Source: Flavobacterium sp. (lineage in GTDB: Bacteria; Bacteroidota; Bacteroidia; Flavobacteriales; Flavobacteriaceae). From it: 64,000 nucleotides of DNA. Positions 21,071 to 38,075 of the stretch are shown here, in pieces; the first letter of the stretch is position 1; every line of letters starts with the position of its first letter. The position numbers were made by a program, and so were the translations under genes. The notes under the pieces were generated by a model. It had not been told where the DNA came from. It did not search any database and was given only the letters and a program-made list of their open reading frames with translations. The DNA lies in contig NZ_DATGXL010000005.1 in assembly GCF_035299005.1 (NCBI RefSeq), positions 5,756 to 69,755 of the forward strand, written 5' to 3'.

Positions 21071-22321
21071 TTATAGTTTAAAGGCAGTTTTTACTTTGTC
21101 TACAAAATCTAATTTTTCCCATGTGAACAATTCAACTGTTAATGTTTTTGTCTCGCCTCCAGGAGCAGAAAATGTTTTTGTTACTGTCTCAGGGGTTCTT
21201 CCCATGTGTCCGTAAGCAGCCGTTTCGCTGTAAATCGGATTTCTTAATTTTAAACGTTGTTCAATAAAGTACGGACGCATATCAAAAATGCTTTCTACTA
21301 CTTTACTGATTTCACCATCTGTTAAGTTCACTTTTGCAGTTCCATAAGTATTTACGTTGATTGATGTTGGTTCAGCAACACCAATTGCATAAGATACTTG
21401 TACTAAAATTTCATCAGCAACACCAGCTGCAACTAAATTTTTAGCAATATGACGTGTAGCATAAGCAGCAGAACGGTCTACTTTAGATGGGTCTTTTCCT
21501 GAGAATGCACCACCACCGTGAGCACCTTTTCCACCGTAAGTATCTACGATAATTTTTCTTCCTGTTAAACCAGTATCTCCGTGAGGTCCTCCAATTACGA
21601 ATTTTCCTGTTGGGTTAATGTGGTATTTAATCGCATCATTAAATAAATGAGCGTATTGAGGATTTTTAGCAATCACTCTTGGAATCAAAATTTCTATAAT
21701 ATCTTTTTTGATTTTCGCTAACATTGTTGGTTCGTCAGCAAAGTCATCATGTTGTGTAGAAACTACAATGGCATCAATACGAACTGGTTTGTTGTCATCG
21801 GAATATTCTAAAGTAACCTGAGATTTTGCATCCGGACGTAAGTAAGTGATTTCTTTGTTCTCTCTTCTTAAATCAGCTAAATCTTGTAATAACTGATGAG
21901 ATAATTTTAAAGCTAACGGCATGAACTCAGCAGTTTCATTTGTGGCATAACCAAACATCATCCCTTGGTCACCAGCACCTTGTTCTTCTTTGCTTGCTCT
22001 GTCAACTCCTTGATTAATATCTGCAGATTGCTCATGAATTGCAGATAAAACTCCACAAGAATTTGCTTCAAACATGTATTCGCTTTTCGTGTAACCAATT
22101 TTCTTGATTACATCTCTTGCGATAGTTTGTACATCTAAATAAGTGTTTGATTTTACTTCTCCAGCTAAAATTACCTGACCTGTAGTAACTAATGTTTCAC
22201 AAGCTACTTTTGACTCAGGGTCAAATGCTAAAAAGTTATCAATTAATGCATCTGAAATTTGATCCGCAACTTTGTCAGGATGCCCTTCACTCACTGATTC
22301 TGACGTAAATAAATAAGCCAT
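21071..22321 (-). CDS. metK: S-adenosylmethionine synthetase
   Basis: [51 protein letters not shown]. Confidence 0.97.
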
Positions 22322-22387
22322 AATTAAATTTTATTATAAATTAAGTGAGAAAAAATATGATTGCAAATAGCGTAAAGGAGTAGGGAA

Positions 22388-22440
22388 TACTGCTTTAGCA
22401 TTTTTTTAATGAGGTCGCAATCAGTTCAAATTTTTCCTCT
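22388..22440 (-). promoter_or_regulatory. SAM-II riboswitch aptamer upstream of metK
   Basis: Minus-strand GAGG-aaaaa-UUUGA-ACUG-AUUGC-GA-CCUC-linker-GCUAAAG-CAGU: P1 GAGG/CCUC, P2 ACUG/CAGU and AUUGC/GCUAA, matching the SAM-II pseudoknot. Confidence 0.8.
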
Positions 22441-22453
22441 TTGTTTTAGGGTG

Positions 22454-22461
22454 CAAATGTA
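22454..22461 (-). promoter_or_regulatory. -7 promoter element for metK
   Basis: TACATTTG on the minus strand just upstream of the aptamer. Confidence 0.7.
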
Positions 22462-22606
22462 TGAAATGAAATTGAATTCCAAATAGTTGTTTACTTATTT
22501 TTTTTAAAAATGTACTTTATCGGAATTTTTGTATGCTTTATCGAAAATATGACTTGTAATTGCTTGTTATTCATATATTTATGTTGAATTTTTAAAACAT
22601 ATTGAT

Positions 22607-23494
22607 ATGGTTAAAAAACTACTTTCTTTTAGCTTTTTGTTAGTATCGCTAACATTTCAAGCGCAAAATTTAATTAGCGAAGGTTTTGATACTTATGCTA
22701 ATTTAGCGACTTCTGGTTGGACATCAACTAATCAAAGTACTGTTATTGGAACTAACCCAGATTGGTTTCAAGGGAATCCTGTAGCTAGTGGAGGCCCTTT
22801 TGACTCCTATGTTGGGGCTACTAATTCTTATGTTGCATGTAATTATAATAGTACTGCTGGAGCCAATACGATTAGTAATTGGTTAATGACTCCTGTGGTT
22901 AGTCTTGTTAATGGAGATGTTATCACTTTTTATACAAGAACTGTCACTTCACCTGCATATGCAGATAGGTTACAATTAAGAATTAGTACTAATGGAGCGG
23001 CTTCAGCTAACCCAGTTGGTGCAACAGGAGTTGGTGATTATACCACTTTAGCTTTAGATGTAAATCCATCACTAGTTGCTTCAAGTTATCCTAATGCATG
23101 GACTCTGTATAGTTATACGGTTTCTGGTTTGCCAACAGCTACTAATTGTAAAATTGCATTTAGATATTTTGTTACAAATGGAGGTCCTTCTGGAGCTAAT
23201 TCAGATTATATTGGAGTTGATTCATTTTCTGTAGATAGACCGTTAAGCTCTGATTCGTTTTTTAAAAATAATTTTTCACTATATCCTAATCCTGTTAATA
23301 ATGTGCTAAATATTTCTATAAAAAATGAATTGTCCATTACTAAATTGACAATTACTGATATAAATGGAAGAATCGTGATTTCAGAATCTTCAGTAATTAA
23401 TTCTTTAAATGTTTCAGATTTATCATCGGGTATATATTTAGTATCTATTGAAACGAATGAAGGAAAAGGGACTGCTAAATTTGTAAAAAATTAA
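22607..23494 (+). CDS. T9SS type-A cargo protein with choice-of-anchor J (cleaved-adhesin-like) domain
   Basis: Signal peptide; TISNWLMTP, ADRLQLRIST, YIGVDSF; CTD FSLYPNPV...GIYLVSI...KFVKN. Confidence 0.85.
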   Translation: MVKKLLSFSFLLVSLTFQAQNLISEGFDTYANLATSGWTSTNQSTVIGTNPDWFQGNPVASGGPFDSYVGATNSYVACNYNSTAGANTISNWLMTPVVSLVNGDVITFYTRTVTSPAYADRLQLRISTNGAASANPVGATGVGDYTTLALDVNPSLVASSYPNAWTLYSYTVSGLPTATNCKIAFRYFVTNGGPSGANSDYIGVDSFSVDRPLSSDSFFKNNFSLYPNPVNNVLNISIKNELSITKLTITDINGRIVISESSVINSLNVSDLSSGIYLVSIETNEGKGTAKFVKN

Positions 23495-23514
23495 AAGATA
23501 TTTTACGTAATTTA

Positions 23515-23549
23515 AAAGAAAAAAGAGGCTTTTGCTTCTTTTTTCTTTT
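23515..23549 (+). terminator. Intrinsic terminator
   Basis: aaagaaaaaagaggc-tttt-gcttcttttttcttt. Confidence 0.75.
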
Positions 23550-23668
23550 ATAATAGATTTTATTTTTGTTATTTATTGTTTTATATGAATAAAAATCTAT
23601 AAAATTGTTTTAAAATAACAAAATTTAGAAAAATAATCTATTTATTTTTTTATTTTAGAAAATAAATC

Positions 23669-23676
23669 TAATTTTG
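23669..23676 (+). promoter_or_regulatory. -7 promoter element for the metY leader
   Basis: TAATTTTG 25 nt upstream of the leader ATG. Confidence 0.65.
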
Positions 23677-23701
23677 CTCCATCAAATTAAAAGAAATAAA
23701 A

Positions 23702-23776
23702 ATGAACTTTACAATTTGCTATATCTGTATGACAATGTGGAATAATCCGCAGAGGTATTGTATTGCATATTTTTAA
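23702..23776 (+). CDS. Cys/Met-rich attenuator leader peptide (24 aa)
   Basis: MNFTICYICMTMWNNPQRYCIAYF; contains gcagaggt, complementary to the downstream terminator stem. Confidence 0.75.
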   Translation: MNFTICYICMTMWNNPQRYCIAYF

Positions 23777-23797
23777 AGAAACTTAAATAATCAATAT

Positions 23798-23826
23798 AAC
23801 CTCTGTCTAAAGCAGAGGTTTTTTAT
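23798..23826 (+). terminator. Attenuator terminator of the metY operon leader
   Basis: aacctctg-tctaaag-cagaggtt followed by T4. Confidence 0.85.
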
Positions 23827-23844
23827 TTCTAATAACACAACAGT

Positions 23845-23895
23845 ATGAAAATAGCAATTTACAATCCAAGACGATGTTGTCGAATGTGTAGCTGA
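23845..23895 (+). CDS. Second Cys-rich uORF (16 aa)
   Basis: MKIAIYNPRRCCRMCS, between the attenuator and metY. Confidence 0.5.
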   Translation: MKIAIYNPRRCCRMCS

Positions 23896-23958
23896 ATCAA
23901 ACTCAGTAAAATCAAAAAAATACATTTAAAAACACAATAACATCAAAAATAAAATATC

Positions 23959-25251
23959 ATGAGCACAAATAAATTTGCAACAAACGCATTACACGCAGGA
24001 CACGACATAACTAAAAATGGAGGAACAAGAGCCGTTCCAATTTACCAAACTACTTCCTACGTGTTCAATAACTCAGACCACGCTGCCAATCTTTTTGGTT
24101 TAGCCGAAGCTGGTTTTATTTATACAAGATTAAATAATCCAACAAACGATATCTTAGAAAAACGTTTAGCTAAATTAGAAGGCGGAATCGGAGCTGTCGT
24201 AACCGCTTCAGGAACTGCTGCTATTTCAACTGCTTTATTAACATTATTAAAAGCGGGCGACCATATAGTAGCTTCTAACAGTTTATATGGCGGAACATAT
24301 AATTTATTAAATGTGACTTTGCCAAGATTAGGCATCACCACAACATTTGTTGATCCATCAAATCCAGAAAATTTCTTAAATGCAGCTCAAGAAAATACCA
24401 GAGTGTTCTTCGCCGAAAGTTTAGGAAATCCAAAATTAGATGTACTCGATTTAAAAGCCATTTCAAAAGCCGCACAAACCTACAAAGTGCCTTTTATTGT
24501 GGATAACACAGTGGCAACACCCTTTTTGCTAAACCCAATCGAACACGGAGCTAACATCGTCATTCATTCATTAACGAAATACATCGGTGGAAACGGAACT
24601 TCGCTTGGAGGTGTTATCATTGATGCAGGAAATTTTGACTGGAGCAACGGAAAATTCCCAGAATTCACAGAACCTTCTGCAGGTTATCACGGATTGAAAT
24701 ATTATGAAGTATTAGGTGCAGCTTCGTTCATAGCAAAAGTTAGAATCGAAGGTTTACGCGATTTAGGTGCTGCTTTGAGTCCATTTAATGCATTTCAAAT
24801 TATTCAAGGATTAGAAACATTGGCTATCCGAATCAAAAAGCATAGTGAAAATGCTTTGGAATTAGCGAAATGGTTGCAAAAACGTTCAGAAGTGGCTTGG
24901 GTAAATTATCCAGGATTAATTTCTTCAAAATATTATGATTTAGCCCAACAATATTTACCAGAAGGACAAAGTGGTATCGTAACTTTTGGATTAAAAGGCG
25001 GTTATGAAGCCGCTAAAAAAGTAGCTGATGAGACTCAATTTTTCTCATTATTAGCGAATATTGGTGATACAAAATCATTAATCATTCATCCTGCAAGTAC
25101 TACGCACCAACAATTGTCAGAAGAACAACAAATTACAACTGGAGTAACGAAAGATTTAATACGTTTATCAGTTGGATTAGAAGATATTGAAGACTTGAAA
25201 ACCGATTTACAAAGTGTTTTCGAAAAATTGCCAGTTCAAAATTTAGTTTAG
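23959..25251 (+). CDS. metY: O-acetylhomoserine aminocarboxypropyltransferase/cysteine synthase (OAH/OAS sulfhydrylase)
   Basis: IYTRLNNPT, HSLTKYIGG PLP lysine, LANIGDTKSLIIHPASTTHQQL, IRLSVGLE. Confidence 0.92.
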   Translation: MSTNKFATNALHAGHDITKNGGTRAVPIYQTTSYVFNNSDHAANLFGLAEAGFIYTRLNNPTNDILEKRLAKLEGGIGAVVTASGTAAISTALLTLLKAGDHIVASNSLYGGTYNLLNVTLPRLGITTTFVDPSNPENFLNAAQENTRVFFAESLGNPKLDVLDLKAISKAAQTYKVPFIVDNTVATPFLLNPIEHGANIVIHSLTKYIGGNGTSLGGVIIDAGNFDWSNGKFPEFTEPSAGYHGLKYYEVLGAASFIAKVRIEGLRDLGAALSPFNAFQIIQGLETLAIRIKKHSENALELAKWLQKRSEVAWVNYPGLISSKYYDLAQQYLPEGQSGIVTFGLKGGYEAAKKVADETQFFSLLANIGDTKSLIIHPASTTHQQLSEEQQITTGVTKDLIRLSVGLEDIEDLKTDLQSVFEKLPVQNLV

Positions 25252-25266
25252 GTTTTTGTTTGTTTC

Positions 25267-25311
25267 AAAGACTGCCAATAGTTCGCACCTAAAGGCAGTC
25301 TTTGTTTTTTT
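25267..25311 (+). terminator. Intra-operon hairpin between metY and metX
   Basis: aaagactgcc-N17-ggcagtcttt followed by gT7. Confidence 0.6.
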
Positions 25312-25319
25312 AAAGAAAA

Positions 25320-26285
25320 ATGTGTAAGATTCAAAAGTTCGTATTTAATACTGTTCCATTGCAAAATGGAGTAGTACAATCAAAAGTGATTTTGTCCTAT
25401 CAATTGTTTGGTCAATCTATTGGTTCGGCTCCTTTGGTAGTGGTGAATCATGCTTTGACAGGAAATTCGCAAGTTATTGGTGAAAACGGTTGGTGGCAAT
25501 CCTTAATTGGTGATGATAAAATTATCGATACCAAAAAATATGCAGTTTTAGCTTTCAATATTCCCGGAAACGGCTATCAAGACAAAGAAAATTTGATTGA
25601 AAATTATCAAGATTTTACAAACCACGATATTGCTAATTTATTCTGGAAAGGAATTGATTCGTTTAAAGTGAATCAAGTTTTTGTAGTCATTGGCGGAAGT
25701 TTAGGCGGTGCAATTGCATGGGAAATGGCAGGAATTCGACCAAAAGCGATTTCAAATTTAATTCCAGTAGCAACAAATTGGAAAGCTTCTGATTGGTTGA
25801 TTGGAAATGTGTTAATTCAAGATTTGATTCTGAATAATTCCAAAAATCCAATTTACGATGCTCGAATTCACGCTATGTTATTGTATCGAACATCTGAATC
25901 ATTACAAGAAAAATTTAACACCAAATTGCAAAATTCAGAAGGATTGTTTCAAGTAGAAAGTTGGTTGTTGCATCACGGAGAAAAATTGCAAAATCGATTT
26001 CAACTTTCGGCCTACAAACTCATGAATCATTTATTGAAAACTACGGATATTTTTAAAAGCAACAATAAATCAGATGTCATCAAAAGTATCTCGTCAAATA
26101 TTCATCTAATAAGTGTGGACACAGATTACTTTTTTACGGCAAACGAAATCAAAACGGCTTTTCAAGAAGTCAAGAATTACAAAAACAACGCATTTTATCA
26201 CGAAATCAAATCCATTCACGGACACGATGCTTTCTTGATAGAATTTGAACAATTAAACAACATACTAAAACCTATATTTAATTAA
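25320..26285 (+). CDS. metX: Homoserine O-acetyltransferase family (alpha/beta hydrolase)
   Basis: NHALTGNS, GGSLGG nucleophile elbow, SIHGHDAFLIE. Confidence 0.85.
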   Translation: MCKIQKFVFNTVPLQNGVVQSKVILSYQLFGQSIGSAPLVVVNHALTGNSQVIGENGWWQSLIGDDKIIDTKKYAVLAFNIPGNGYQDKENLIENYQDFTNHDIANLFWKGIDSFKVNQVFVVIGGSLGGAIAWEMAGIRPKAISNLIPVATNWKASDWLIGNVLIQDLILNNSKNPIYDARIHAMLLYRTSESLQEKFNTKLQNSEGLFQVESWLLHHGEKLQNRFQLSAYKLMNHLLKTTDIFKSNNKSDVIKSISSNIHLISVDTDYFFTANEIKTAFQEVKNYKNNAFYHEIKSIHGHDAFLIEFEQLNNILKPIFN

Positions 26286-26375
26286 GATGAAATCGCTCAC
26301 AGAACTTTTTGCGAAAGCAAAATCCAATAAAAAAGCGATACCATTTTTTACCACTGAAAAATAAAATCTAAAAAA

Positions 26376-28790
26376 ATGAAAATATTAAAATTTGGAGGAA
26401 AATCATTAGCAAACGGAGAAGGATTGCAAAAAGTAATTCAAACGATTGCTCAAAAATATTTCAATAGCGAACCCATTGCAGTCGTAGTTTCGGCAAGAGG
26501 AAATGCTACAGACGAATTGGTAATTTTACTAAAAAAAGCGCAAGCCAACATCAGTTTTCAAGCAGATTTTGAGCAATTCAAAAAATACCAATTGGAAGGC
26601 TTGAAAGAAAACATATTTGAAGAAGAATTCTCAGTTTTACAAAAGTTATTAGAGGGTGTTTCGCTTTTAGGAGATTACAGCGAAAAAATCAAAGATCAAG
26701 TCATTGCGTATGGCGAAATTCTATCCGCAAAATATGTAGCTTATGTGTTGAATGAGAACAGCATTAAAGCACAATTTTCAGATGCGCGACAATTGATAAA
26801 AACGGATATAAATTTTGGAAATGCACAACCAATTGACGCTGTTTCAAAGCGAAATGTCTTGGATTATTTCGAAAAAAACACAGATAAAGTCAACATTGTA
26901 ACTGGTTTTATAGGTTCAACGTTACACAACGAAACCACTACTTTAGGAAGAAATGGTAGTAATTACACCGCTTCATTATTAGCGAATTACTTAAACGCTG
27001 AAGAATTTCAAAATTTCACACACGTTGACGGAATTTTCACCGCCAACCCAGATTTAGTTGCTGATGCAAAAAAAATCGAGCGATTATCGTTTAACGAAGC
27101 GAATGAGTTAGCAAATTTTGGAGCACAAATTTTACATGCCAAAACCATCATTCCTTTGGTGGAAAAAAACATTCCGTTGCGCATTTTAAACACCTTCAAT
27201 CCAGAAAGTGAAGGAACTTTAATCACTTCCGAACAAACCAATGAAGGGATCAAATCGCTTTCGGTTTTAACCAATGTGTCGTTGATTAATTTAGAAGGAA
27301 GAGGTTTATTAGGAAAAACTGGTGTAGATGCGCGAATTTTTCGAGTAATGGCTGAAAACGATATTAGTGTTAGCATCATTTCACAAGGTTCTTCGGAAAG
27401 AGGAATTGGTTTGGTAGTGAGTTCTGATAAGGCTTCCAAAGCATTAGTTGGTTTGGAAAAAGAATTTGAAACCGATTTTTATACGAAAGATGTCAATAAG
27501 ATTTCGGTAAACGATAATATTGCTGTGATTTCGATTATTGGGCAAGATTTAACCAATTTTCATAAACCATACACGGCTTTAATCCGAAATAAAATCACAC
27601 CAATTTTGTTGAATAATACAGTTACGGGAAGAAATATCAGTTTGGTGATCAGTCAAGATGAATTCAAACGCGCTTTAAATGTGATTCACGGCGAAATTTT
27701 TGGAGTAGCGAAAAAAATCAACATCGCTATTTTCGGTCACGGTACGGTTGGTGGAACTTTGATTTCCCAAATTTTAGAATCCGCAAAAAACATTGAAAAG
27801 CGAAAAGGAATCAAGCTGAATGTATTTGCGATTGCGAATTCAAAGAAAGTATTGTTGAATAAATTCGGAATTAGCGAAAATTGGAAAGCAACTTTAGAAG
27901 ATAAAGGGCAAGATTATAAAGTGGAAGATATTATTGGGTACGCGAAAGAACATCATTTGGAAAATTTAATCGCGATTGACAACACCGCCAGTTCGACTTT
28001 TATTGAAAATTATATTTCGCTTGCTGAAAATAGTTTCGATTTGATTTCGTCAAATAAAGTCGCCAATACAGTAAGTTATGATTTCTATAAAAAGCTGCGA
28101 AAAGTCTTAAAAGATAACCAAAAAGAATATCTATACGAAACCAATGTTGGTGCAGGTTTGCCTCTAATTGATACGATAAAATTACTGCATTTGTCAGGTG
28201 AAAACATCACCAAAATTAAAGGTGTTTTCTCTGGGACATTAAGTTATTTGTTCAATAATTTTTCAGTTGAAAACAAAAAATTCAGCGAAGTATTGCAAGA
28301 AGCCATCGATAAAGGTTTCACCGAACCCGACCCAAGAGAAGATTTAAACGGAAACGACGTTGGACGAAAATTATTAATCCTAGCTCGCGAATTAGATTTA
28401 CAAAACGAATTTGAAGAAATCCAAATTCAAAATTTAATTCCAGAGGCTTTACGTGAAGGAAGCGCAACGGATTTCTTAAAACGCTTATCAGAATTAGACG
28501 GAATTTATCAAAACATCAAAGACGCTCAAGGTCCAAATGAAGTGTTGCGTTACATTGGAGAATTATCAGGCGATTTGCAACAAGACAAAGGAAAATTGGA
28601 AGTAAAATTAATCTCAGTTTCAGCCAATTCTGCTTTAGGTTCGTTAAAAGGTTCGGATTCTATTTTCGAAATTTATACTGAATCTTATGGAGAACAACCA
28701 ATCGTAATTCAAGGCGCAGGAGCTGGAGCATCCGTAACTGCAAGAGGCGTTTTTGGCGATATTTTACGTTTATCTGAAAAAAAATTATAA
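26376..28790 (+). CDS. thrA: Bifunctional aspartate kinase/homoserine dehydrogenase
   Basis: KFGGKS, TTLGRNGSNYTA, ACT domains, GHGTVGG, YLYETNVGAGLP, TEPDPREDL, GAGAGASVTA. Confidence 0.92.
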   Translation: MKILKFGGKSLANGEGLQKVIQTIAQKYFNSEPIAVVVSARGNATDELVILLKKAQANISFQADFEQFKKYQLEGLKENIFEEEFSVLQKLLEGVSLLGDYSEKIKDQVIAYGEILSAKYVAYVLNENSIKAQFSDARQLIKTDINFGNAQPIDAVSKRNVLDYFEKNTDKVNIVTGFIGSTLHNETTTLGRNGSNYTASLLANYLNAEEFQNFTHVDGIFTANPDLVADAKKIERLSFNEANELANFGAQILHAKTIIPLVEKNIPLRILNTFNPESEGTLITSEQTNEGIKSLSVLTNVSLINLEGRGLLGKTGVDARIFRVMAENDISVSIISQGSSERGIGLVVSSDKASKALVGLEKEFETDFYTKDVNKISVNDNIAVISIIGQDLTNFHKPYTALIRNKITPILLNNTVTGRNISLVISQDEFKRALNVIHGEIFGVAKKINIAIFGHGTVGGTLISQILESAKNIEKRKGIKLNVFAIANSKKVLLNKFGISENWKATLEDKGQDYKVEDIIGYAKEHHLENLIAIDNTASSTFIENYISLAENSFDLISSNKVANTVSYDFYKKLRKVLKDNQKEYLYETNVGAGLPLIDTIKLLHLSGENITKIKGVFSGTLSYLFNNFSVENKKFSEVLQEAIDKGFTEPDPREDLNGNDVGRKLLILARELDLQNEFEEIQIQNLIPEALREGSATDFLKRLSELDGIYQNIKDAQGPNEVLRYIGELSGDLQQDKGKLEVKLISVSANSALGSLKGSDSIFEIYTESYGEQPIVIQGAGAGASVTARGVFGDILRLSEKKL

Positions 28791-28803
28791 CCACCCAAAC
28801 TCC

Positions 28804-28837
28804 AAAACCTGCAAAATGTAAAAGTCTTGTGGGTTTT
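28804..28837. repeat. Imperfect REP-like palindrome
   Basis: aaaacctgcaa...ttgtgggtttt arms pairing with G-U wobbles. Confidence 0.4.
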
Positions 28838-28882
28838 ACACTTTAACAGTTCAACGACTAAACAATTCAACAAACAAAAACC

Positions 28883-30055
28883 ATGAGTAACCAAAATTTA
28901 GGATTAGAAACCCAAGCCATCAGAACGCAATTAGAACGTACGCAATATTTAGAACATTCCGTTCCGTTATATCTAACTTCCAGTTTTATTTTTGAAGATG
29001 CGGAAGACATGCGTGCTTCTTTTGCAGAAGAAAAAGAACGCAATATTTATAGCCGATTTTCCAATCCCAATACATCTGAATTTGTTGAGAAAATTTGTTT
29101 GATGGAAGGAGCAGAAGACGGCTACGCTTTCGCAACCGGAATGGCAGCGGTGTATTCTACTTTTGCTGCTTTATTGAATTCGGGCGATCATATTGTTTCG
29201 GCGAGTAGTGTTTTTGGTTCGACACATACTTTGTTCACCAAATATTTTCCGAAATGGAACATCACCACTTCGTATTTCGATGTCAACAAACCAGAAACAA
29301 TTGAAAATTTCATTCAACCAAATACAAAAATACTTTACGCGGAATCACCAACCAATCCAGCAGTTGATATTCTAGATTTAGAATTGTTGGGTAAAATTGC
29401 CAAAAAACACAATCTGATTTTAATCATCGATAACTGTTTTGCGACTCCTTACATTCAAAATCCAATTCAATTTGGAGCCGATTTAGTGATTCATTCTGCA
29501 ACCAAATTAATCGATGGTCAAGGTCGTGTTTTAGGTGGAGTAACCGTTGGGCGTTCTGATTTAATTCGTGAAATTTATTTGTTTTCTCGCAATACCGGAC
29601 CTGCTTTGTCGCCTTTTAATGCTTGGGTGTTGTCAAAAAGTTTAGAAACGTTGCCAGTTCGTATCGAAAAACATTCCGAAAACGCTTTAAAAGTTGCCGA
29701 ATTTTTAGAAAACCATCCGAATGTTGCTTCCGTAAAATATCCATTTCTAAAATCGCATCCACAGTATGAAGTCGCTAAAAAGCAAATGAAATTAGGCGGA
29801 AATATTGTAGCGTTTGAAATTAAAGGAGGAATTGAATCAGGAAGAAAGTTTTTAGATAAAATCAAATTATGTTCCTTATCTGCGAATTTAGGTGACACAC
29901 GTTCGATTGTTACACACCCAGCTTCCACAACTCATAGTAAATTGACTGAAGAAGAACGTTTAGCAGTAAGCATTACAGATGGTTTAGTTCGCGTTTCGGT
30001 TGGTTTAGAAACGGTTCAAGATGTAATCAATGACTTAAAGCAAGCGTTAGAATAA
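28883..30055 (+). CDS. Trans-sulfuration PLP enzyme (MetZ/MetB-type sulfhydrylase or cystathionine gamma-synthase)
   Basis: IYSRFSNP, FATGMAA, HSATKLIDGQGR, ANLGDTRSIVTHPASTTH. Confidence 0.88.
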   Translation: MSNQNLGLETQAIRTQLERTQYLEHSVPLYLTSSFIFEDAEDMRASFAEEKERNIYSRFSNPNTSEFVEKICLMEGAEDGYAFATGMAAVYSTFAALLNSGDHIVSASSVFGSTHTLFTKYFPKWNITTSYFDVNKPETIENFIQPNTKILYAESPTNPAVDILDLELLGKIAKKHNLILIIDNCFATPYIQNPIQFGADLVIHSATKLIDGQGRVLGGVTVGRSDLIREIYLFSRNTGPALSPFNAWVLSKSLETLPVRIEKHSENALKVAEFLENHPNVASVKYPFLKSHPQYEVAKKQMKLGGNIVAFEIKGGIESGRKFLDKIKLCSLSANLGDTRSIVTHPASTTHSKLTEEERLAVSITDGLVRVSVGLETVQDVINDLKQALE

Positions 30056-30070
30056 AAGTTTTTAAATTAT

Positions 30071-30124
30071 TTTATAGATTTATATTCTTAATTAATATTA
30101 AAAAACGGAATATAAATCTATAAA
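30071..30124. repeat. Perfect 17-bp inverted repeat with 20-bp spacer upstream of the SAM-I promoter
   Basis: tttatagatttatattc (30071-30087) and gaatataaatctataaa (30108-30124). Confidence 0.85.
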
Positions 30125-30178
30125 TAATATTTATTTAATGAAATTTCAGAAAATATTTCATTATTTCAATTTTGTCAC

Positions 30179-30186
30179 TACATTTG
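30179..30186 (+). promoter_or_regulatory. -7 promoter element for the metH-metF operon
   Basis: TACATTTG 23 nt upstream of the SAM-I P1 helix. Confidence 0.7.
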
Positions 30187-30209
30187 CAGAGTTCATAAAC
30201 ATACTGTTT

Positions 30210-30311
30210 GTTATCACGAAAGCTGGAGGGAATAGACCCTGCGAAAGCTTAGCAACCCTACACTTGTAGAAGGTGCTACATTCTATTTCGATTTTATCGG
30301 AAGCAGATAAC
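30210..30311 (+). promoter_or_regulatory. SAM-I riboswitch
   Basis: P1 gttatc/gataac; GGAGGGA..gaccc..GAAAG P2; AGCAACC...AAGGTGCT P3; P4 ttcgat/atcgga. Confidence 0.92.
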
Positions 30312-30409
30312 CTAAGGAAATTTTTTTCCAATTTCTTGATAACATATTAATAATATAAACTTTGTGAAACTCTGTGAAAACTTAGCGTAACTCTGTGTAA
30401 CAAAAAAAT

Positions 30410-31402
30410 ATGTCAAAAATTCAAGAAGAAATCAAAAAACGAATTCTCGTGCTTGACGGAGCTATGGGAACGATGTTACAACGTTATAAATTTGAAGAAG
30501 AAGATTTCAGAGGCGAGCGCTTCAAAGATTTTCCGCATCCATTAAAAGGAAACAACGATTTGCTTTCCATTACCCAACCAGAAGCTGTAAAATCAGTTCA
30601 TCGTGCTTATTTTGAAGCAGGTGCTGATATTGTAGAAACGAATACTTTTTCGGGAACTACTATTGGAATGGCGGATTATTATTTGGAAGATTTAGTCTAC
30701 GAACTGAATTTTCAATCCGCAAAAATCGCTCGTGAAGTAGCAGACGAATTTACTGATAAGCTAAGATTTGTAGCTGGTTCTATAGGTCCAACCAACAGAA
30801 CAGCATCAATGTCACCAGATGTAAACGACCCAGGATTTCGTGCGGTGAATTTTGATGATTTAAAAATCGCTTACAAACAGCAAGTAGAAGCTTTAATAGA
30901 TGGTGGTTGCGATTTACTTTTGGTAGAAACTATTTTCGATACGTTAAATGCAAAAGCCGCTTTGTTTGCAATTGAAGAAGTGAAAGATGAGCGAACCATT
31001 GATATTCCTATAATGGTTTCCGGAACTATTACGGATGCTTCGGGAAGAACATTATCGGGACAAACGGTTGAAGCTTTTTTAATTTCGATTTCACATATTC
31101 CATTGTTGAGTGTTGGGTTTAATTGCGCTTTAGGAGCTGATCAATTGAAACCATATTTGAAACGTTTAGGAAATAATACCTCATTAAATATTTCGGCACA
31201 TCCCAATGCAGGTTTGCCAAATGCTTTCGGGCAATACGACCAAACGCCTGAGGAAATGCAACAATTAATTCGTGAATATTTACAGGAAAATTTAGTAAAT
31301 ATTATCGGCGGATGTTGCGGAACAACCCCAGATCACATCAAATTAATAGCTGAGGTAGCAAAAGAATTCAAACCTAGAACGCAACAATTGAAATCCGTTT
31401 AA
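30410..31402 (+). CDS. Methionine synthase homocysteine-binding module (split MetH, N-terminal part)
   Basis: [26 protein letters not shown] zinc ligands. Confidence 0.93.
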
Positions 31403-31432
31403 TCGGTAAAATCCGTGGCATAAAATATTACA

Positions 31433-31573
31433 ATGAAAAACAGAACAATAAAAATACAATTCGAATCATTTTTAAATTCACAACGATGTTGGGTTTGCCA
31501 ATATGTTAGTGATAGTAAAACCTTTTGGAAGGATGTTGCAAAACACTATAAAAGAATAAGTAATGAGTTATAA
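31433..31573 (+). CDS. Small CxxC peptide between the MetH halves (46 aa; not in the ORF track)
   Basis: [46 protein letters not shown]; overlaps the metH start by 11 nt. Confidence 0.4.
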
Positions 31574-34235
31574 TTCCGATAAATATTTAAAATTATCAGG
31601 TTTAGAACCTTTGATTGTAACTCCAGAAACCAATTTTGTAAACGTTGGAGAACGAACAAACGTAACTGGTTCTAGAAAATTTCTTCGATTGATTAAAGAA
31701 GAAAAGTACGATGAAGCGCTTTCGGTTGCACGCGAACAAGTAGAAGGTGGCGCGCAAATCATCGATGTCAACATGGATGAAGGAATGTTAGATGGTGTTT
31801 ATGCAATGACAAAATTCCTAAATCTAATTGCTGCCGAACCCGATATTGCTCGAGTTCCTGTTATGATTGATTCTTCAAAATGGGAAATTATTGAAGCGGG
31901 TTTGAAAGTCATTCAAGGAAAAGGCGTGGTGAATTCGATTTCTCTAAAAGAAGGAGAAGCTACTTTTATTCATCATGCTAAATTAATCAAACGATACGGA
32001 GCAGCTGTAATTGTTATGGCTTTTGATGAAAAGGGTCAGGCTGACACATACGAAAGACGTATTGAAATTTGTAAAAGAAGTTACGATATTCTGGTGAACC
32101 AAGTAGGTTTTCCAGCAGAAGACATCATTTTTGATCCCAATATTTTTCCAGTTGCAACTGGAATGGAAGAACACAAACTAAATGCTTTAGATTTCTTCCG
32201 AGCAACCAAATGGATTCGCGAAAATCTTCCGTATGCAAATATTTCTGGAGGTGTGAGTAATGTGTCCTTTTCTTTCCGTGGAAATGATAAAGTACGTGAG
32301 GCGATGCATTCTGCCTTTTTGTATCATGCCATTCAAAACGGAATGACAATGGGAATTGTAAATCCAGAAATGTTAGAGATTTATGATGAAATCGATAAAA
32401 ATCTTTTAGAACATGTTGAAGATGTTTTATTAAACAGAAGAGAAGATGCTACAGAACGTTTGCTAGATTTAGCCGAAAGTTTCAAAGGTGATGTAAAATC
32501 AAATGAAAAAGCTATTGCCGAATGGAGAAATGGTTCGGTTCAAGAACGATTAACGCATTCATTAGTGAAAGGAATTGACGAATTTATCGAAATTGATGTG
32601 GAGGAAGCACGCCAGTTGGTTGAAAAACCTATAGAAGTTATCGAAAATCATCTTATGAACGGAATGAATGTGGTTGGTGATTTATTCGGAAGAGGAAAAA
32701 TGTTCTTGCCACAAGTAGTAAAATCAGCTCGTGTAATGAAAAAAGCGGTGGCTTATTTACTTCCTTATATTGAAGCTTCAAAAGATGGAAAATCTTCTTC
32801 GGCTGGAAAAGTATTGATGGCAACTGTAAAAGGCGATGTACATGATATTGGTAAAAATATTGTTTCAGTAGTTTTAGCCTGTAATAATTTCGAAATTATT
32901 GATTTAGGTGTGATGGTTCCGCCAGAAAAAATTATTGAAGTTGCGGTTAAAGAAAATGTAGATATTATTGGTTTGAGCGGTTTGATTACACCTTCGTTGG
33001 ACGAAATGGTGTATTTGGCCAAAGAAATGGATAAGTTGAACATCAAAATTCCAGTTATGATTGGCGGTGCGACAACTTCCCGTGCGCATACGGCTGTGAA
33101 AATTGCGCCAGAATATAAAGAAACTGTGGTTCATGTGAATGATGCTTCTCGTGCGGTAACGGTTGCAACCAATTTATTGCAACCAGAGACTAAAATTACT
33201 TATGCTAAATCACTTCGTGAAGAATATGATACGCTTAGAGAAGGGTATTTGAATAGAAGTCGTGAGAAAAATTTCTTATCGATTGAAGAAGCGCGTAAAA
33301 ATAAATTCAAAATCGATTGGAATACGTTCGAACCGGTAAAACCAAATTTCATAGGAACCAAAACCATTGAAGTTGAACTATCGGAATTAGTAAATTTCAT
33401 CGATTGGACCCCATTTTTTCAGTCTTGGGAATTGTATGGAAAATTTCCAGCGATTTTAGCTGATGAAATTGTAGGTGAACAAGCGACGAATTTGTTTGAA
33501 GATGCACAAAAAATGCTTGCTCAAATTGTTTCGGAAAAATGGTTTTCTGCCAAAGGAATTTTAGGAATTTTTCCAGCCAATACAATAAATGATGATGATG
33601 TTGAGGTTGTCACTTCAAACGAAGTTGAGAAATTTTTGACGCTTCGTCAACAATCACAAAAAACTGCTGGAGCTCCAAATATTGCTTTAGCCGATTTTAT
33701 AACCCCAAAAGAAATTGGGAAACGAGATTATATAGGATGTTTCTGTGTGTCAACCGGTTTTGGAGTGGATGAGAAAGCTTCGGAATTTGAAAAACAATTA
33801 GACGATTATAATTCGATTTTGGTAAAAGCTTTGGGAGATAGATTAGCAGAAGCTTTTGCGGAATATTTGCATTTAAAAGTTCGTAAGGAAATATGGGGTT
33901 ATGCTTCTGATGAGGTATTGTCTAACGAGGAATTAATCAAAGAAGAATACAAAGGAATTCGTCCTGCTCCAGGTTATCCTGCTTGTCCTGACCATTTAGA
34001 AAAACCAACGATTTGGAAATTATTAAAGGTAGAGCAAGAAATAGGAGTAAAGTTAACTGAAAGCATGGCGATGTGGCCAGCGTCATCGGTTTCAGGTTAT
34101 TATTTTGCGAATCCAGAAAGTAAATATTTTGGTTTAGGAAAAATTAAAAAAGACCAATTAGAAGATTACGCCAAAAGAAGAAATATTAGTATTGAACAAG
34201 CCGAAAAATGGCTCTCACCCAATTTAGCAGATTAA
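31563..34235 (+). CDS. metH: B12-dependent methionine synthase (pterin-binding, cobalamin-binding and reactivation domains)
   Basis: [52 protein letters not shown]. Confidence 0.95.
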
Positions 34236-34236
34236 G

Positions 34237-35193
34237 ATGAAAGTAACTGAACATATACAAAACGCCAACGGAAAACCTTTGTTCTCCTTCGAAATTTTAC
34301 CACCCTTAAAAGGACAAAACATTCAATCCATTTTTGATAGCATTGACCCTTTGATGGAATTCAATCCGCCATTTATTGATGTTACGTATCATCGTGAAGA
34401 ATATGAATTCAAAGAGTTAGAAAATGGTTTACTGCAGAAAAAAGTAGTTAAAAAACGACCGGGAACGGTTGGGATTTGTGCTGGAATTCAGAATAAATAT
34501 CAAGTAGATGCTATTCCGCATATTTTGTGTGGTGGTTTTACCAAAGAAGATACTGAAAATCTGTTGATTGATTTAGATTTCTTAGGAATTGATAATGTCG
34601 TAGCGCTTCGAGGTGATGCAGTTAAAAGCGAAATTTACTTCAAACCTGAAAAAGAAGGCCATGCTTATGCTTCAGAATTAGTAACACAAATCAGCAATTT
34701 GAACAAAGGGATTTATTTGGACGAAGATTTACAAAATTCCACTAAAACCGATTTTTGCATTGGAGTTGCAGGTTATCCGGAAAAACATATGGAAGCTCCA
34801 AGTTTAGATAGTGACATTCATTTCGTAAAGCAAAAAATCAAAAATGGTGCAGATTATATCATCACCCAAATGTTTTTTGATAATAAAAAATTCTTCGATT
34901 TTGTGGCAAAATGCAGAGCCGCTGGAATTACTGTTCCAATTATTCCGGGGTTAAAACCTATAGCTACTAAAAAACAGTTAAACTTAATTCCGCATCGTTT
35001 TAGCGTTGAATTGCCTGATGATTTGATTATGGAGGTAGTTAAAGCAAAAGATAATGATGCCGTAAGACAGATTGGAATAGAGTGGTGTACACAACAAAGT
35101 AAAGAATTGGTGGCAGCTGGAATTCCAGTTTTACATTACTATTCTATGGGAAAAGCCGAAAATGTAAAAGCAATAGCAAAAGAAATTTTTTAA
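34237..35193 (+). CDS. metF: 5,10-methylenetetrahydrofolate reductase
   Basis: SFEILPP, ALRGD, VAGYPEKH, ADYIITQMFF. Confidence 0.93.
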   Translation: MKVTEHIQNANGKPLFSFEILPPLKGQNIQSIFDSIDPLMEFNPPFIDVTYHREEYEFKELENGLLQKKVVKKRPGTVGICAGIQNKYQVDAIPHILCGGFTKEDTENLLIDLDFLGIDNVVALRGDAVKSEIYFKPEKEGHAYASELVTQISNLNKGIYLDEDLQNSTKTDFCIGVAGYPEKHMEAPSLDSDIHFVKQKIKNGADYIITQMFFDNKKFFDFVAKCRAAGITVPIIPGLKPIATKKQLNLIPHRFSVELPDDLIMEVVKAKDNDAVRQIGIEWCTQQSKELVAAGIPVLHYYSMGKAENVKAIAKEIF

Positions 35194-37098: not shown

Positions 37099-37182
37099 AT
37101 GAATATAAATAGCACATTTTTTTATAACAATTCTTTTAACTTCTTCTACATAAAGAAGAGGGATTGTTTTGCTATTAAATAA
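37099..37182 (+). CDS. Phe/Tyr-rich attenuator leader peptide (27 aa)
   Basis: MNINSTFFYNNSFNFFYIKKRDCFAIK (6 Phe, 2 Tyr); contains gggattgt, complementary to the terminator 5' arm. Confidence 0.8.
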   Translation: MNINSTFFYNNSFNFFYIKKRDCFAIK

Positions 37183-37208
37183 ATCAAGAAATTATTTTAT
37201 AAACATAC

Positions 37209-37236
37209 AATCCCGATTTACATCGGGATTTTTTTT
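37209..37236 (+). terminator. Attenuator terminator upstream of pheA
   Basis: aatcccgat-ttac-atcgggatt followed by T6, 11 nt before the pheA ATG. Confidence 0.85.
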
Positions 37237-37247
37237 GCACATATATT

Positions 37248-38075
37248 ATGGAAGTTAAAGTCGCAATTCAGGGAATTCAAGGGTCATTTCATCATCAAGT
37301 TGCACATCATTATTTTGGAGAAGCAATTATTTTGGATGAGTGTGGTTCATTTAGAGAAGTTGTAAACAGTCTAAAGAATAATCAATCTGGCAAAGCAATT
37401 ATGGCGATTGAAAATTCGATTGCAGGCGCTATTTTGCCTAATTATGCTTTAATCGATTCAAATGATTTGCACATTATTGGTGAATATTTTTTGGATATTC
37501 ATATGAATTTGATGGTATTGCCCGGTCAAAAGATCGAAGATGTTAAGGAAGTACATTCGCATCCAATTGCCTTGTTGCAATGTGCTAATTTCTTCAACCA
37601 ATACCCACATATCAAATTGGTAGAAAGTTCTGACACTGCAATTACCGCAAAACGTATTCAAGAAAATCAATTAAAAGGAATTGGTGCTTTGGCTGGACCA
37701 GTTGCTTCCGAAATTTACAATTTGGAAATTATCGCTGACGGAATTCACACTGTAAAAAGTAATAAAACACGATTTGTGGTTTTAAAAGCGTCCAACAAAG
37801 AAATTTCGAAAGGACTTATTAATAAAGCATCGATAAAATTTGAATTAGATGATACACCGGGTTCATTGGCAACCGTTCTAAATGTGTTGAATAATTGCAA
37901 ATTGAATCTAACAAAAATTCAATCATTACCTATTATAGAGGCACCTTTTACTTATGCGTTTTTTGTTGATGTGGTTTTTGAAAAATATAAACATTTTGAA
38001 AAAGCGAAAAAAGTAATGGAAATTATGACAACACATTTCAAGGTTTTGGGCGAATATGAAAGAAGTAAGCAATAA
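37248..38075 (+). CDS. pheA: Prephenate dehydratase
   Basis: IQGIQGSFH, AIENSIAG, SHPIALLQC, NKTRF, ACT domain LTKIQS.P. Confidence 0.92.
   Translation: MEVKVAIQGIQGSFHHQVAHHYFGEAIILDECGSFREVVNSLKNNQSGKAIMAIENSIAGAILPNYALIDSNDLHIIGEYFLDIHMNLMVLPGQKIEDVKEVHSHPIALLQCANFFNQYPHIKLVESSDTAITAKRIQENQLKGIGALAGPVASEIYNLEIIADGIHTVKSNKTRFVVLKASNKEISKGLINKASIKFELDDTPGSLATVLNVLNNCKLNLTKIQSLPIIEAPFTYAFFVDVVFEKYKHFEKAKKVMEIMTTHFKVLGEYERSKQ

Follow-up and report, generated by a model that had tools for sequence, protein, structure and literature searches.

Methionine (Met) is a classic amino acid for control by riboswitches, T-boxes and protein repressors in bacteria. Protein regulators of Met genes, among them MetJ with its met-boxes, MetR, SahR and SamR in Proteobacteria and MtaR/MetR in streptococci, are associated with palindromic or repeated sites in front of several Met operons. 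Here we analyzed a methionine cluster of Flavobacterium sp., which lies at positions 21071-35193 of a 64,000-nucleotide (nt) stretch of DNA (assembly GCF_035299005.1, contig NZ_DATGXL010000005.1, positions 5,756 to 69,755; hereafter the window) and holds three transcription units in 14.1 kb: metK, the metY operon and metH-metF.

The closest described systems are leader-peptide attenuators and S-adenosylmethionine (SAM) riboswitches. Classical attenuators, such as E. coli trpL, hisL, pheL, thrL and leuL, Bacteroidetes trp, and F. psychrophilum ilvE, hisG and aromatic leaders (PMC9723704), share a short open reading frame (ORF) with cognate codons, a 1:2 hairpin, a 2:3 antiterminator overlapping that ORF, and a 3:4 intrinsic terminator before a biosynthetic operon. 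The F. psychrophilum transcriptome assigned leader-peptide attenuation to the ilvE, hisG, aromatic and trp operons (PMC9723704), and its supplement records two unresolved transcripts, short and independent, that lie upstream of metY and vary in level together with it. SAM-II long loops were described in Bacteroidetes in 2010 (Weinberg et al., PMC2864571), and SAM-II at metK has been reported for F. psychrophilum (supplement of PMC9723704). A 2007 survey had found no species with both the SAM-I and the SAM-II class, at a time when the long-loop variant was not yet known (PMC2258182).

Set beside these systems, the cluster as a whole combines switches of known kinds and does not amount to a new kind of system. 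It probably represents the standard Flavobacterium methionine regulon, in which three transcription units each carry their own RNA-level sensor: a SAM-II riboswitch on metK, a SAM-I riboswitch on metH-metF, and an attenuator on the metY operon that is predicted to read methionine and cysteine (Met/Cys) supply through ribosome stalling, just as the two aptamers are predicted to respond to their ligand.

Leader peptides of the metY operon

The transcript upstream of metY begins with a complete set of attenuator elements:

23669-23676, + strand: -7 box TAATTTTG of the metY operon promoter, from sequence reading; invariant in five species
23702-23776, + strand: upstream ORF 1 (uORF1), a type-A Met/Cys leader peptide MNFTICYICMTMWNNPQRYCIAYF; covariance model R1, 124 bits
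23736-23751, + strand: 1:2 hairpin UGUGGA/UCCGCA, covering part of the antiterminator strand; from folding in relatives
23749-23756, + strand: region 2 GCAGAGGU, the antiterminator strand within the leader ORF; from duplex analysis
23798-23826, + strand: intrinsic terminator (regions 3:4) with U-run; terminator scan, stem at 23798-23820 with nine pairs

Covariance model R1 was built from the leaders of eight relatives, and conservation was read on 30 aligned leaders. uORF1 has 24 codons, three of them Cys and three Met (start included), and Cys makes up 0.73% of codons genome-wide. Its consensus is M[KN][FL]x[IM]C[NH]MC[CR]MM, with the Cys/Met block in frame in all 30 leaders. Past this block, a 1-nt insertion or deletion swaps the peptide between WKLPQR and SESSAE and leaves the RNA UCCGCAGAG unchanged, which indicates that selection downstream of the Cys/Met block acts on RNA and not on peptide. 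For the terminator, 96.7% of the cells in the 30-species comparison were paired, and four pairs showed changes on both sides. In 27 of the 30 leaders its 5' arm found its best match in CGCAGAG(G), a segment within the ORF that lies about 11 nt ahead of the stop. The 1:2 hairpin was present in every leader, where it overlaps the regulatory codons and hides region 2. Furthermore, in a variant clade regions 2, 3 and 4 covary (UGCGGG/UGUGGG with CCCGCA/CCCACA with CGGG/UGGG), and the 1:2 hairpin of that clade carries the compensatory CAGGA/UCCUG.

Two observations weigh against this architecture. Column-wise covariation of the 2:3 helix in the model-fitted alignment was no better than in shuffles. 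This test failed because the 1-nt indel misregisters the alignment, and support for the 2:3 helix was taken in its place from a per-sequence duplex analysis. In addition, a TAA-to-TAT change adds two codons to uORF1 in this genome, and region 2 ends 18 nt before the stop compared to 11 nt in most relatives; since uORF1 is longer here, a terminating ribosome would cover region 2 less well. With the leader ORF and three covarying helices, all sequence-level hallmarks of classical attenuation are nonetheless present. The metY leader is well supported as a genuine Cys/Met leader-peptide attenuator, one that would be translated and would respond to starvation for these amino acids.

The expected course of regulation follows the classical scheme. 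A ribosome stalled at the Cys/Met codons 6-12 of uORF1 would melt the 1:2 hairpin, and GCAGAGG in the leader ORF, once freed, would pair with CCUCUG. This pairing would block the terminator and let RNA polymerase continue into metY. With charged tRNA-Met and tRNA-Cys in ample supply, the ribosome would pass region 2, the terminator would form and transcription would end at about 23826. The leader differs from the classical attenuators in that its regulatory codons are Met and Cys, and in that most Flavobacterium carry two unrelated Met/Cys leaders in tandem.

The class to which the metY attenuator belongs is known, but the attenuator itself is apparently undescribed. The metY leader has no match among Rfam families, and a leader-peptide attenuator for Met or for Met/Cys was not described in the literature searched. 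Sub-threshold Rfam matches in the leader (OmrA-B, 30 bits; Leu_leader, 28 bits, within the metK 3' end) were taken as chance, and the 'met 5'UTR' of Xanthomonas (PMC6230763) is a SAM-I-like element, not a leader peptide. Model R1 detected a type-A leader in 99 of the 151 Flavobacterium genomes sampled, or in 86 of 118 when only those of good quality are counted, often in two or three copies. F. psychrophilum has two metY leaders, positioned exactly where the two short transcripts had been seen, and Met/Cys leaders would explain these transcripts, which offer indirect evidence for the regulation predicted here.

Two further leaders were noted. In the window, a Phe/Tyr-rich leader ORF MNINSTFFYNNSFNFFYIKKRDCFAIK at 37100-37236 (+ strand), before pheA, is followed by a terminator AAUCCCGAUUUACAUCGGGAUUUUUUUU and then by a gene starting with ATG at 37249; an upstream GAGGGAUUG is able to pair with the terminator 5' arm. 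This is a leader-peptide attenuator of the same design as the metY leader, in the same genome. In F. psychrophilum DSM 3660 (locus L108, positions 860-985), the stop codon that usually closes the first leader ORF is missing (GCA TCA instead of GCA TAA), and the frame runs through the terminator for 41 codons.

Downstream of the first terminator, 24 of 30 genus loci have a second Met/Cys leader, unrelated to the first and called type-B here (for example MKTIAKRNMMCCEMMQMCIPICCCQK), and both stages occur together in 39 of 80 named loci. The type-B leader has a terminator of its own, CCCUUUUGG...CCAAAAGGG, and its CCAAAAG, which encodes Gln-Lys, is able to pair with the 5' arm of that terminator. 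The genome analyzed here has a shorter element in its place:

23845-23895, + strand: uORF2 MKIAIYNPRRCCRMCS, Cys-rich and without a terminator; from conservation in eight species and the type-B position in relatives

uORF2 occupies the type-B position in this genome and seven close relatives; of the 80 named loci, 7 have it. Across the eight species 48 of its 51 nt and 14 of its 16 third positions are invariant, compared to 26 of the 63 spacer nt that follow it, 6 of the 18 nt that precede it and 22 of 40 third positions in metY. The spacer to metY contains 1 G and 10 C in 63 nt. Because uORF2 has the skeleton MK.IA...CC.M in common with the type-B leader, it is most simply read as a truncated type-B descendant that has lost its terminator and is strongly constrained. 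Most Flavobacterium carry a tandem second Met/Cys leader with a terminator, and this clade keeps the terminator-less uORF2. The mycobacterial polycysteine short ORFs, reported to be Cys-responsive attenuators (Canestrari et al., bioRxiv 10.1101/834739), resemble uORF2 in having Cys codons clustered near the end, in preceding sulfur amino-acid genes and in lacking an intrinsic terminator. uORF2 differs from them in having Met and Arg codons as well and in its descent from a terminator-bearing leader. Nor is it leaderless, the mycobacterial hallmark, as it lies about 160 nt inside the transcript, past the uORF1 terminator. The fold predicted a long-range pairing between uORF2 and the metY start region, but this pairing is lost in members of the clade (L094, L095, L098 and L073) and was rejected as a conserved structure.

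In four large-genome species (L005, L006, L007 and L010), an extra conserved ORF of about 90 codons, starting MNTLDINTIAFQYLLRN... or MKTLNSIAIEYLLRN..., lies between the type-B terminator and metY. The same four carry a further copy of the type-A leader about 650-900 nt upstream of a SAM-I riboswitch.

Two SAM riboswitches and the layout across the genus

A scan of the whole window with Rfam gave exactly two matches above the gathering score, one upstream of metK and one upstream of metH:

22385-22445, - strand: SAM-II long-loop aptamer, RF01726; 65.1 bits against a gathering score of 44, model positions 1-60 of 60
22454-22461, - strand: -7 box TACATTTG of the metK promoter, Bacteroidetes type; from sequence reading
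22347-22366, - strand: candidate expression platform, a segment able to pair with the 5' half of the SAM-II aptamer; from the fold
30208-30313, + strand: SAM-I (S-box) aptamer, RF00162; 75.3 bits against 44.4, model positions 1-108 of 108
30180-30187, + strand: -7 box TACATTTG of the metH-metF promoter, from sequence reading; kept across species
30332-30344, + strand: candidate expression platform, a segment complementary to the SAM-I P1 5' strand; inverted repeat I6, 13 nt, 92% complementary

Both aptamer assignments are certain. The SAM-II aptamer lies 63 nt upstream of metK on the same strand and the SAM-I aptamer upstream of the split metH and metF; each is a single genomic copy, and directly upstream of each stands a -7 box (Bacteroidetes consensus TAnnTTTG). 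The metK aptamer is a full-length match to SAM-II long-loop (RF01726) and as an aptamer does not differ from that class; in F. psychrophilum and Bacteroides thetaiotaomicron, too, this riboswitch stands before metK. Its candidate platform is a conserved helix that would compete with the aptamer 5' half. In the minimum-energy fold of the metK leader (z = -3.05), GAGGAAAAAU and UGAUUGCGA pair with AUUUUUUCUC and UUGCAAUCA, and this anti-aptamer pairing can be read in relatives too. The metK-leader structure of F. psychrophilum shows the same pairing (supplement of PMC9723704). The metH-metF element matches SAM-I/S-box (RF00162) over its full length and precedes methionine synthase and metF genes, as is usual for this class; it differs in sharing a genome with a SAM-II-class riboswitch and in having no canonical terminator after the aptamer.

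What weighs against complete switches is that the terminator scan and the folds revealed no canonical terminator after either the SAM-II or the SAM-I aptamer. After SAM-I only the 13-nt anti-P1 segment was seen, and the platform differs in close relatives. The two expression platforms are put forward as candidates, the one at metK from the fold and the one at metH from an inverted repeat. Between the SAM-I aptamer and the metH start codon lie two tandem 21-nt repeats, AAACTTTGTGAAACTCTGTGA and AAACTTAGCGTAACTCTGTGT (30357-30398, + strand), at a position where close relatives have a different sequence.

The layout of the three sensors is shared widely. Among 151 Flavobacterium species, SAM-II long-loop was found in 141, SAM-I in 125 and the type-A leader in 99. 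In the source genome a secreted-protein gene has been inserted between the metK riboswitch and the metY leader, which in many species face away from each other across 200-300 nt. Genome-wide scans of the source genome found one SAM-I, one SAM-II and one type-A leader, all within this cluster. An earlier, sequence-only reading of the window had named a SAM-II at metK, a SAM-I at metH-metF, and a Cys/Met attenuator with a second uORF at the metY operon, and each of these was recovered, the first two as Rfam matches and the third as uORF1, its terminator and uORF2. Its distance of about 9 kb is right for the three leaders only, as the span it described measures 14.1 kb. Compared across the genus, the arrangement of the three leaders is a common one and not peculiar to the source genome. 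The view of an undescribed integrated system, taken in that reading, does not hold in full: no Met/Cys attenuator was described in the literature searched, but the layout is common to Flavobacterium and parts of it are in print (PMC2864571, PMC9723704). Finally, it had supposed that each segment of the pathway reads a different signal. Three distinct RNA-level sensors do sit on three units, but SAM-I and SAM-II read the same ligand, which leaves two signals read by RNA (SAM and the charging of Met/Cys tRNAs) and at most one putative transcription-factor signal.

From the elements, their conservation and their covariation, all of which are read directly, we infer the ligand responses, the ribosome stalling and any transcription-factor binding. 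SAM would shut off the genes of the SAM and methyl cycle (metK; metH and metF) via two unrelated aptamer folds, and the homocysteine-backbone operon (metY, a metX-like gene, aspartate kinase/homoserine dehydrogenase and a metZ-like gene) would be under a ribosome-mediated transcription attenuator. Such a division of work would let SAM govern the methyl-cycle genes and tRNA charging the homocysteine-backbone genes. A ribosome-read Met/Cys attenuator appears to serve about two thirds of sampled Flavobacterium, with clear covariation and often in tandem. F. johnsoniae, whose strain UW101 has these types of leader, offers a tractable model for asking why cells would read both SAM and Met-tRNA, and F. 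cheniae and F. cucumis have the uORF2 variant. The tandem leader form of the relatives together with the constrained uORF2 of this genome are the parts most deserving of experiments.

Promoter motifs and rival readings of the cluster

The metY and metH promoters carry several inverted repeats:

23554-23599, no strand: distal inverted pair TAGATTT-N32-AAATCTA, upstream of the metY promoter; from pattern search
30075-30120, no strand: second TAGATTT-N32-AAATCTA, upstream of metH; from pattern search
30071-30124, no strand: perfect 17-nt inverted repeat TTTATAGATTTATATTC-N20-GAATATAAATCTATAAA at metH (repeat I2), which includes the metH TAGATTT-N32-AAATCTA
30147-30161, no strand: metH proximal site CAGAAAATATTTCAT (TAGAAAATATTTCAT in relatives); from relatives
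23626-23640, no strand: TAGA-N7-TCTA palindrome 1, TAGAAAAATAATCTA, operator candidate in the invariant promoter block
23656-23670, no strand: TAGA-N7-TCTA palindrome 2, TAGAAAATAAATCTA, adjoining the -7 box in the invariant promoter block

The sequence-only reading was correct that the metY and metH leaders share a DNA motif: TAGATTT-N32-AAATCTA occurs exactly twice in the 2.80-Mb genome, compared to about 0.18 expected per spacing from half-site counts, and both copies lie 75-130 nt upstream of the predicted metY and metH transcript starts. At metH the arms of the 17-nt repeat are kept and its loop is variable in four genomes (G022, G076, G061 and G135). These arms resemble TAGA-N7-TCTA, with perfect matches in G061 and G076, and the proximal site yAGAAAATATTTCAT stands 41 nt from the distal-right site in three lineages with diverged spacers. 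At metY, palindromes 1 and 2, are 15 bp each and stand 30 nt apart over the core promoter; the genome has no other exact pair with this spacing. Exact TAGA-N7-TCTA with an all-A/T spacer occurs seven times, the other five within genes. The promoter block of about 65 nt at 23610-23676, which holds both palindromes, is invariant in five species with different upstream genes, and the pair recurs in at least nine species, F. psychrophilum included. The two palindromes are also the top intergenic hits of a position weight matrix (PWM), but both were in its training set. On sequence conservation the paired TAGA-N7-TCTA sites make a better operator candidate than the shared inverted pair; together with the related metH sites, they may add promoter-level control by a putative transcription factor. 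To our knowledge, TAGA-N7-TCTA pairs 30-31 nt apart match none of the Met-regulator sites named at the outset. Whether a real operator, bound by a transcription factor, lies here we judge to be nearly an even call, tilting slightly to the negative.

A good deal of evidence pulls away from such an operator, and part of it also favors an account in which there is no integrated circuit. In that account three independent cis-elements would lie near each other only through the clustering of Met genes, the shared motif would be ordinary AT-rich promoter or terminator-flank DNA, and uORF2 would be a decaying remnant; we give it appreciable weight, if less than half. TAGATTT/AAATCTA inverted arrays are common in Flavobacterium intergenic DNA. 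Exact TAGATTT-N32-AAATCTA was found in 39 of 151 genomes, barely above the roughly 27 for a reversed-pattern control, and was therefore rejected as a genus-wide operator; its matches in the genus are mostly AGATTT arrays of a generic kind or belong to one conserved stretch of coding sequence. Here both copies stand directly past the stop codon of the preceding gene, and metK has none. The sequence-only reading had taken this motif as a putative operator answering to a transcription-factor ligand. The pair is indeed present at both operons, but it is conserved only in the nearest four to five species (at metY only partly, and degenerate there in the nearest species), and no regulator gene was found adjoining the cluster, the neighbours being proteins of no family, a DUF6973 protein, an ABC ATPase and a TPR protein. 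TAGA-N7-TCTA itself is low in information for a genome of 32% G+C. The metY pair is well kept, but the metH sites are weaker and lie at other distances from the promoter, and many species, indeed most Flavobacterium, carry another upstream palindrome in place of this motif. The PWM scan of the genome gave many coding hits, and its other intergenic hits fell near a sensor kinase, an antiporter and outer-membrane proteins; as none of these is Met-related, no regulon can be defined. An absence of any circuit is harder to reconcile with the confinement of TAGATTT-N32-AAATCTA to two Met operons in this genome, the location of the sole exact TAGA-N7-TCTA pair, a promoter block that stayed invariant although its flanks were replaced, the 41-nt spacing held across diverged metH spacers, and a uORF2 far more conserved than flanks or synonymous sites. 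At the other extreme would be a circuit of three layers, in which a tandem Met/Cys attenuator, its second stage turned into a terminator-less stalling uORF that acts through Rho or translation, is combined with a methionine- or sulfur-responsive transcription factor on paired TAGA-N7-TCTA sites at metY and metH, so that SAM, tRNA charging and a third ligand would be read separately. Such a circuit would contain two undescribed layers, the tandem attenuator and the transcription factor, and we consider it unlikely.

Part of that question turns on uORF2. Instead of a relic, it could be an active second sensor, in which stalling at its CC-R(CGA)-M-C codons controls Rho-dependent termination or metY translation in the 63-nt spacer. 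Its near-invariance in eight species, third positions included, would suit such a role, as would the G-poor spacer and the terminator-less, Cys-responsive uORFs described in mycobacteria. However, G-poor, A-rich leaders are ordinary in Bacteroidetes, uORF2 is confined to a small clade, its predicted pairing with the metY start region is lost in some clade members, and CGA is only moderately rare in this genome (12.8% of Arg codons). An active role is somewhat unlikely. Far less probable, and in our view very unlikely, is a non-ribosomal explanation of the metY leader as a whole, by which it would be a protein- or metabolite-binding RNA or a plain pause or termination signal, with untranslated small ORFs and an incidental richness in Cys and Met. 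The uORFs are so far read from DNA, Bacteroidetes make no strong use of Shine-Dalgarno sequences, so that initiation sites are hard to call, and Rfam offers no match for the leader, all of which leaves room for this explanation. It does not account for Cys/Met codons that stay in frame in every aligned leader while the downstream peptide frame shifts freely, nor for three Cys within 16-24 codons given the genome-wide share. Furthermore, it is Met genes that stand downstream of both unrelated leader types and of the Met-only leaders in other families, and the Phe/Tyr leader of this genome has the same design. The standard regulon, with a ribosome-read attenuator at metY beside two SAM riboswitches, is the reading we prefer.

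Six loci (L052, L055, L056, L065, L066 and L076) lack the TAGA-N7-TCTA pair and have another palindrome, (AAATCT)AAATAC-GTA-GTATTTAAATATAT, upstream of their metY leaders, possibly the site of another regulator.

Genes of the cluster

The source genome measures 2.80 Mb with 31.6% G+C, and its nearest named relatives are Flavobacterium cheniae, 'Flavobacteria bacterium BAL38', F. cucumis and F. proteolyticum. The cluster contains the following genes:

21071-22321, - strand: metK, methionine adenosyltransferase; three S-AdoMet synthetase Pfam domains; TIGR01034, 526 bits
22607-23494, + strand: gene for a 295-residue protein with a type-IX-secretion C-terminal sorting domain, unrelated to Met genes
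23959-25251, + strand: metY, O-acetylhomoserine sulfhydrylase; TIGR01326, 637 bits
25320-26285, + strand: MetX-like homoserine O-acyltransferase, alpha/beta hydrolase fold; Abhydrolase_1; top NCBIfam match MetX, 170 bits, under the curated cut-off
26376-28790, + strand: bifunctional aspartate kinase/homoserine dehydrogenase; NF006959, 762 bits, over the cut-off
28883-30055, + strand: Cys/Met-metabolism enzyme of the pyridoxal phosphate-dependent type, MetZ/cystathionine gamma-synthase family; PF01053, 454 bits
30410-31402, + strand: N-terminal part of metH, homocysteine S-methyltransferase domain; PF02574; metH model positions 2-321
31563-34235, + strand: C-terminal part of metH, pterin-binding, B12-binding and activation domains; four Pfam domains; NF007024, 1521 bits
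34237-35193, + strand: metF, methylenetetrahydrofolate reductase; TIGR00676, 308 bits, over the cut-off

For the product of 28883-30055, the top NCBIfam match is O-succinylhomoserine sulfhydrylase, at 511 bits slightly under the cut-off of 522. The sorting-domain gene at 22607-23494 separates metK from the metY leader, which adjoin each other directly in many relatives. metH is divided between two genes that precede metF. A 46-codon ORF with a CxxC motif (31433-31573, + strand) occupies the 160-nt gap that separates the metH halves and extends 11 nt into the second of them; Pfam gave no match for it, and its protein is kept with synonymous changes in two relatives.

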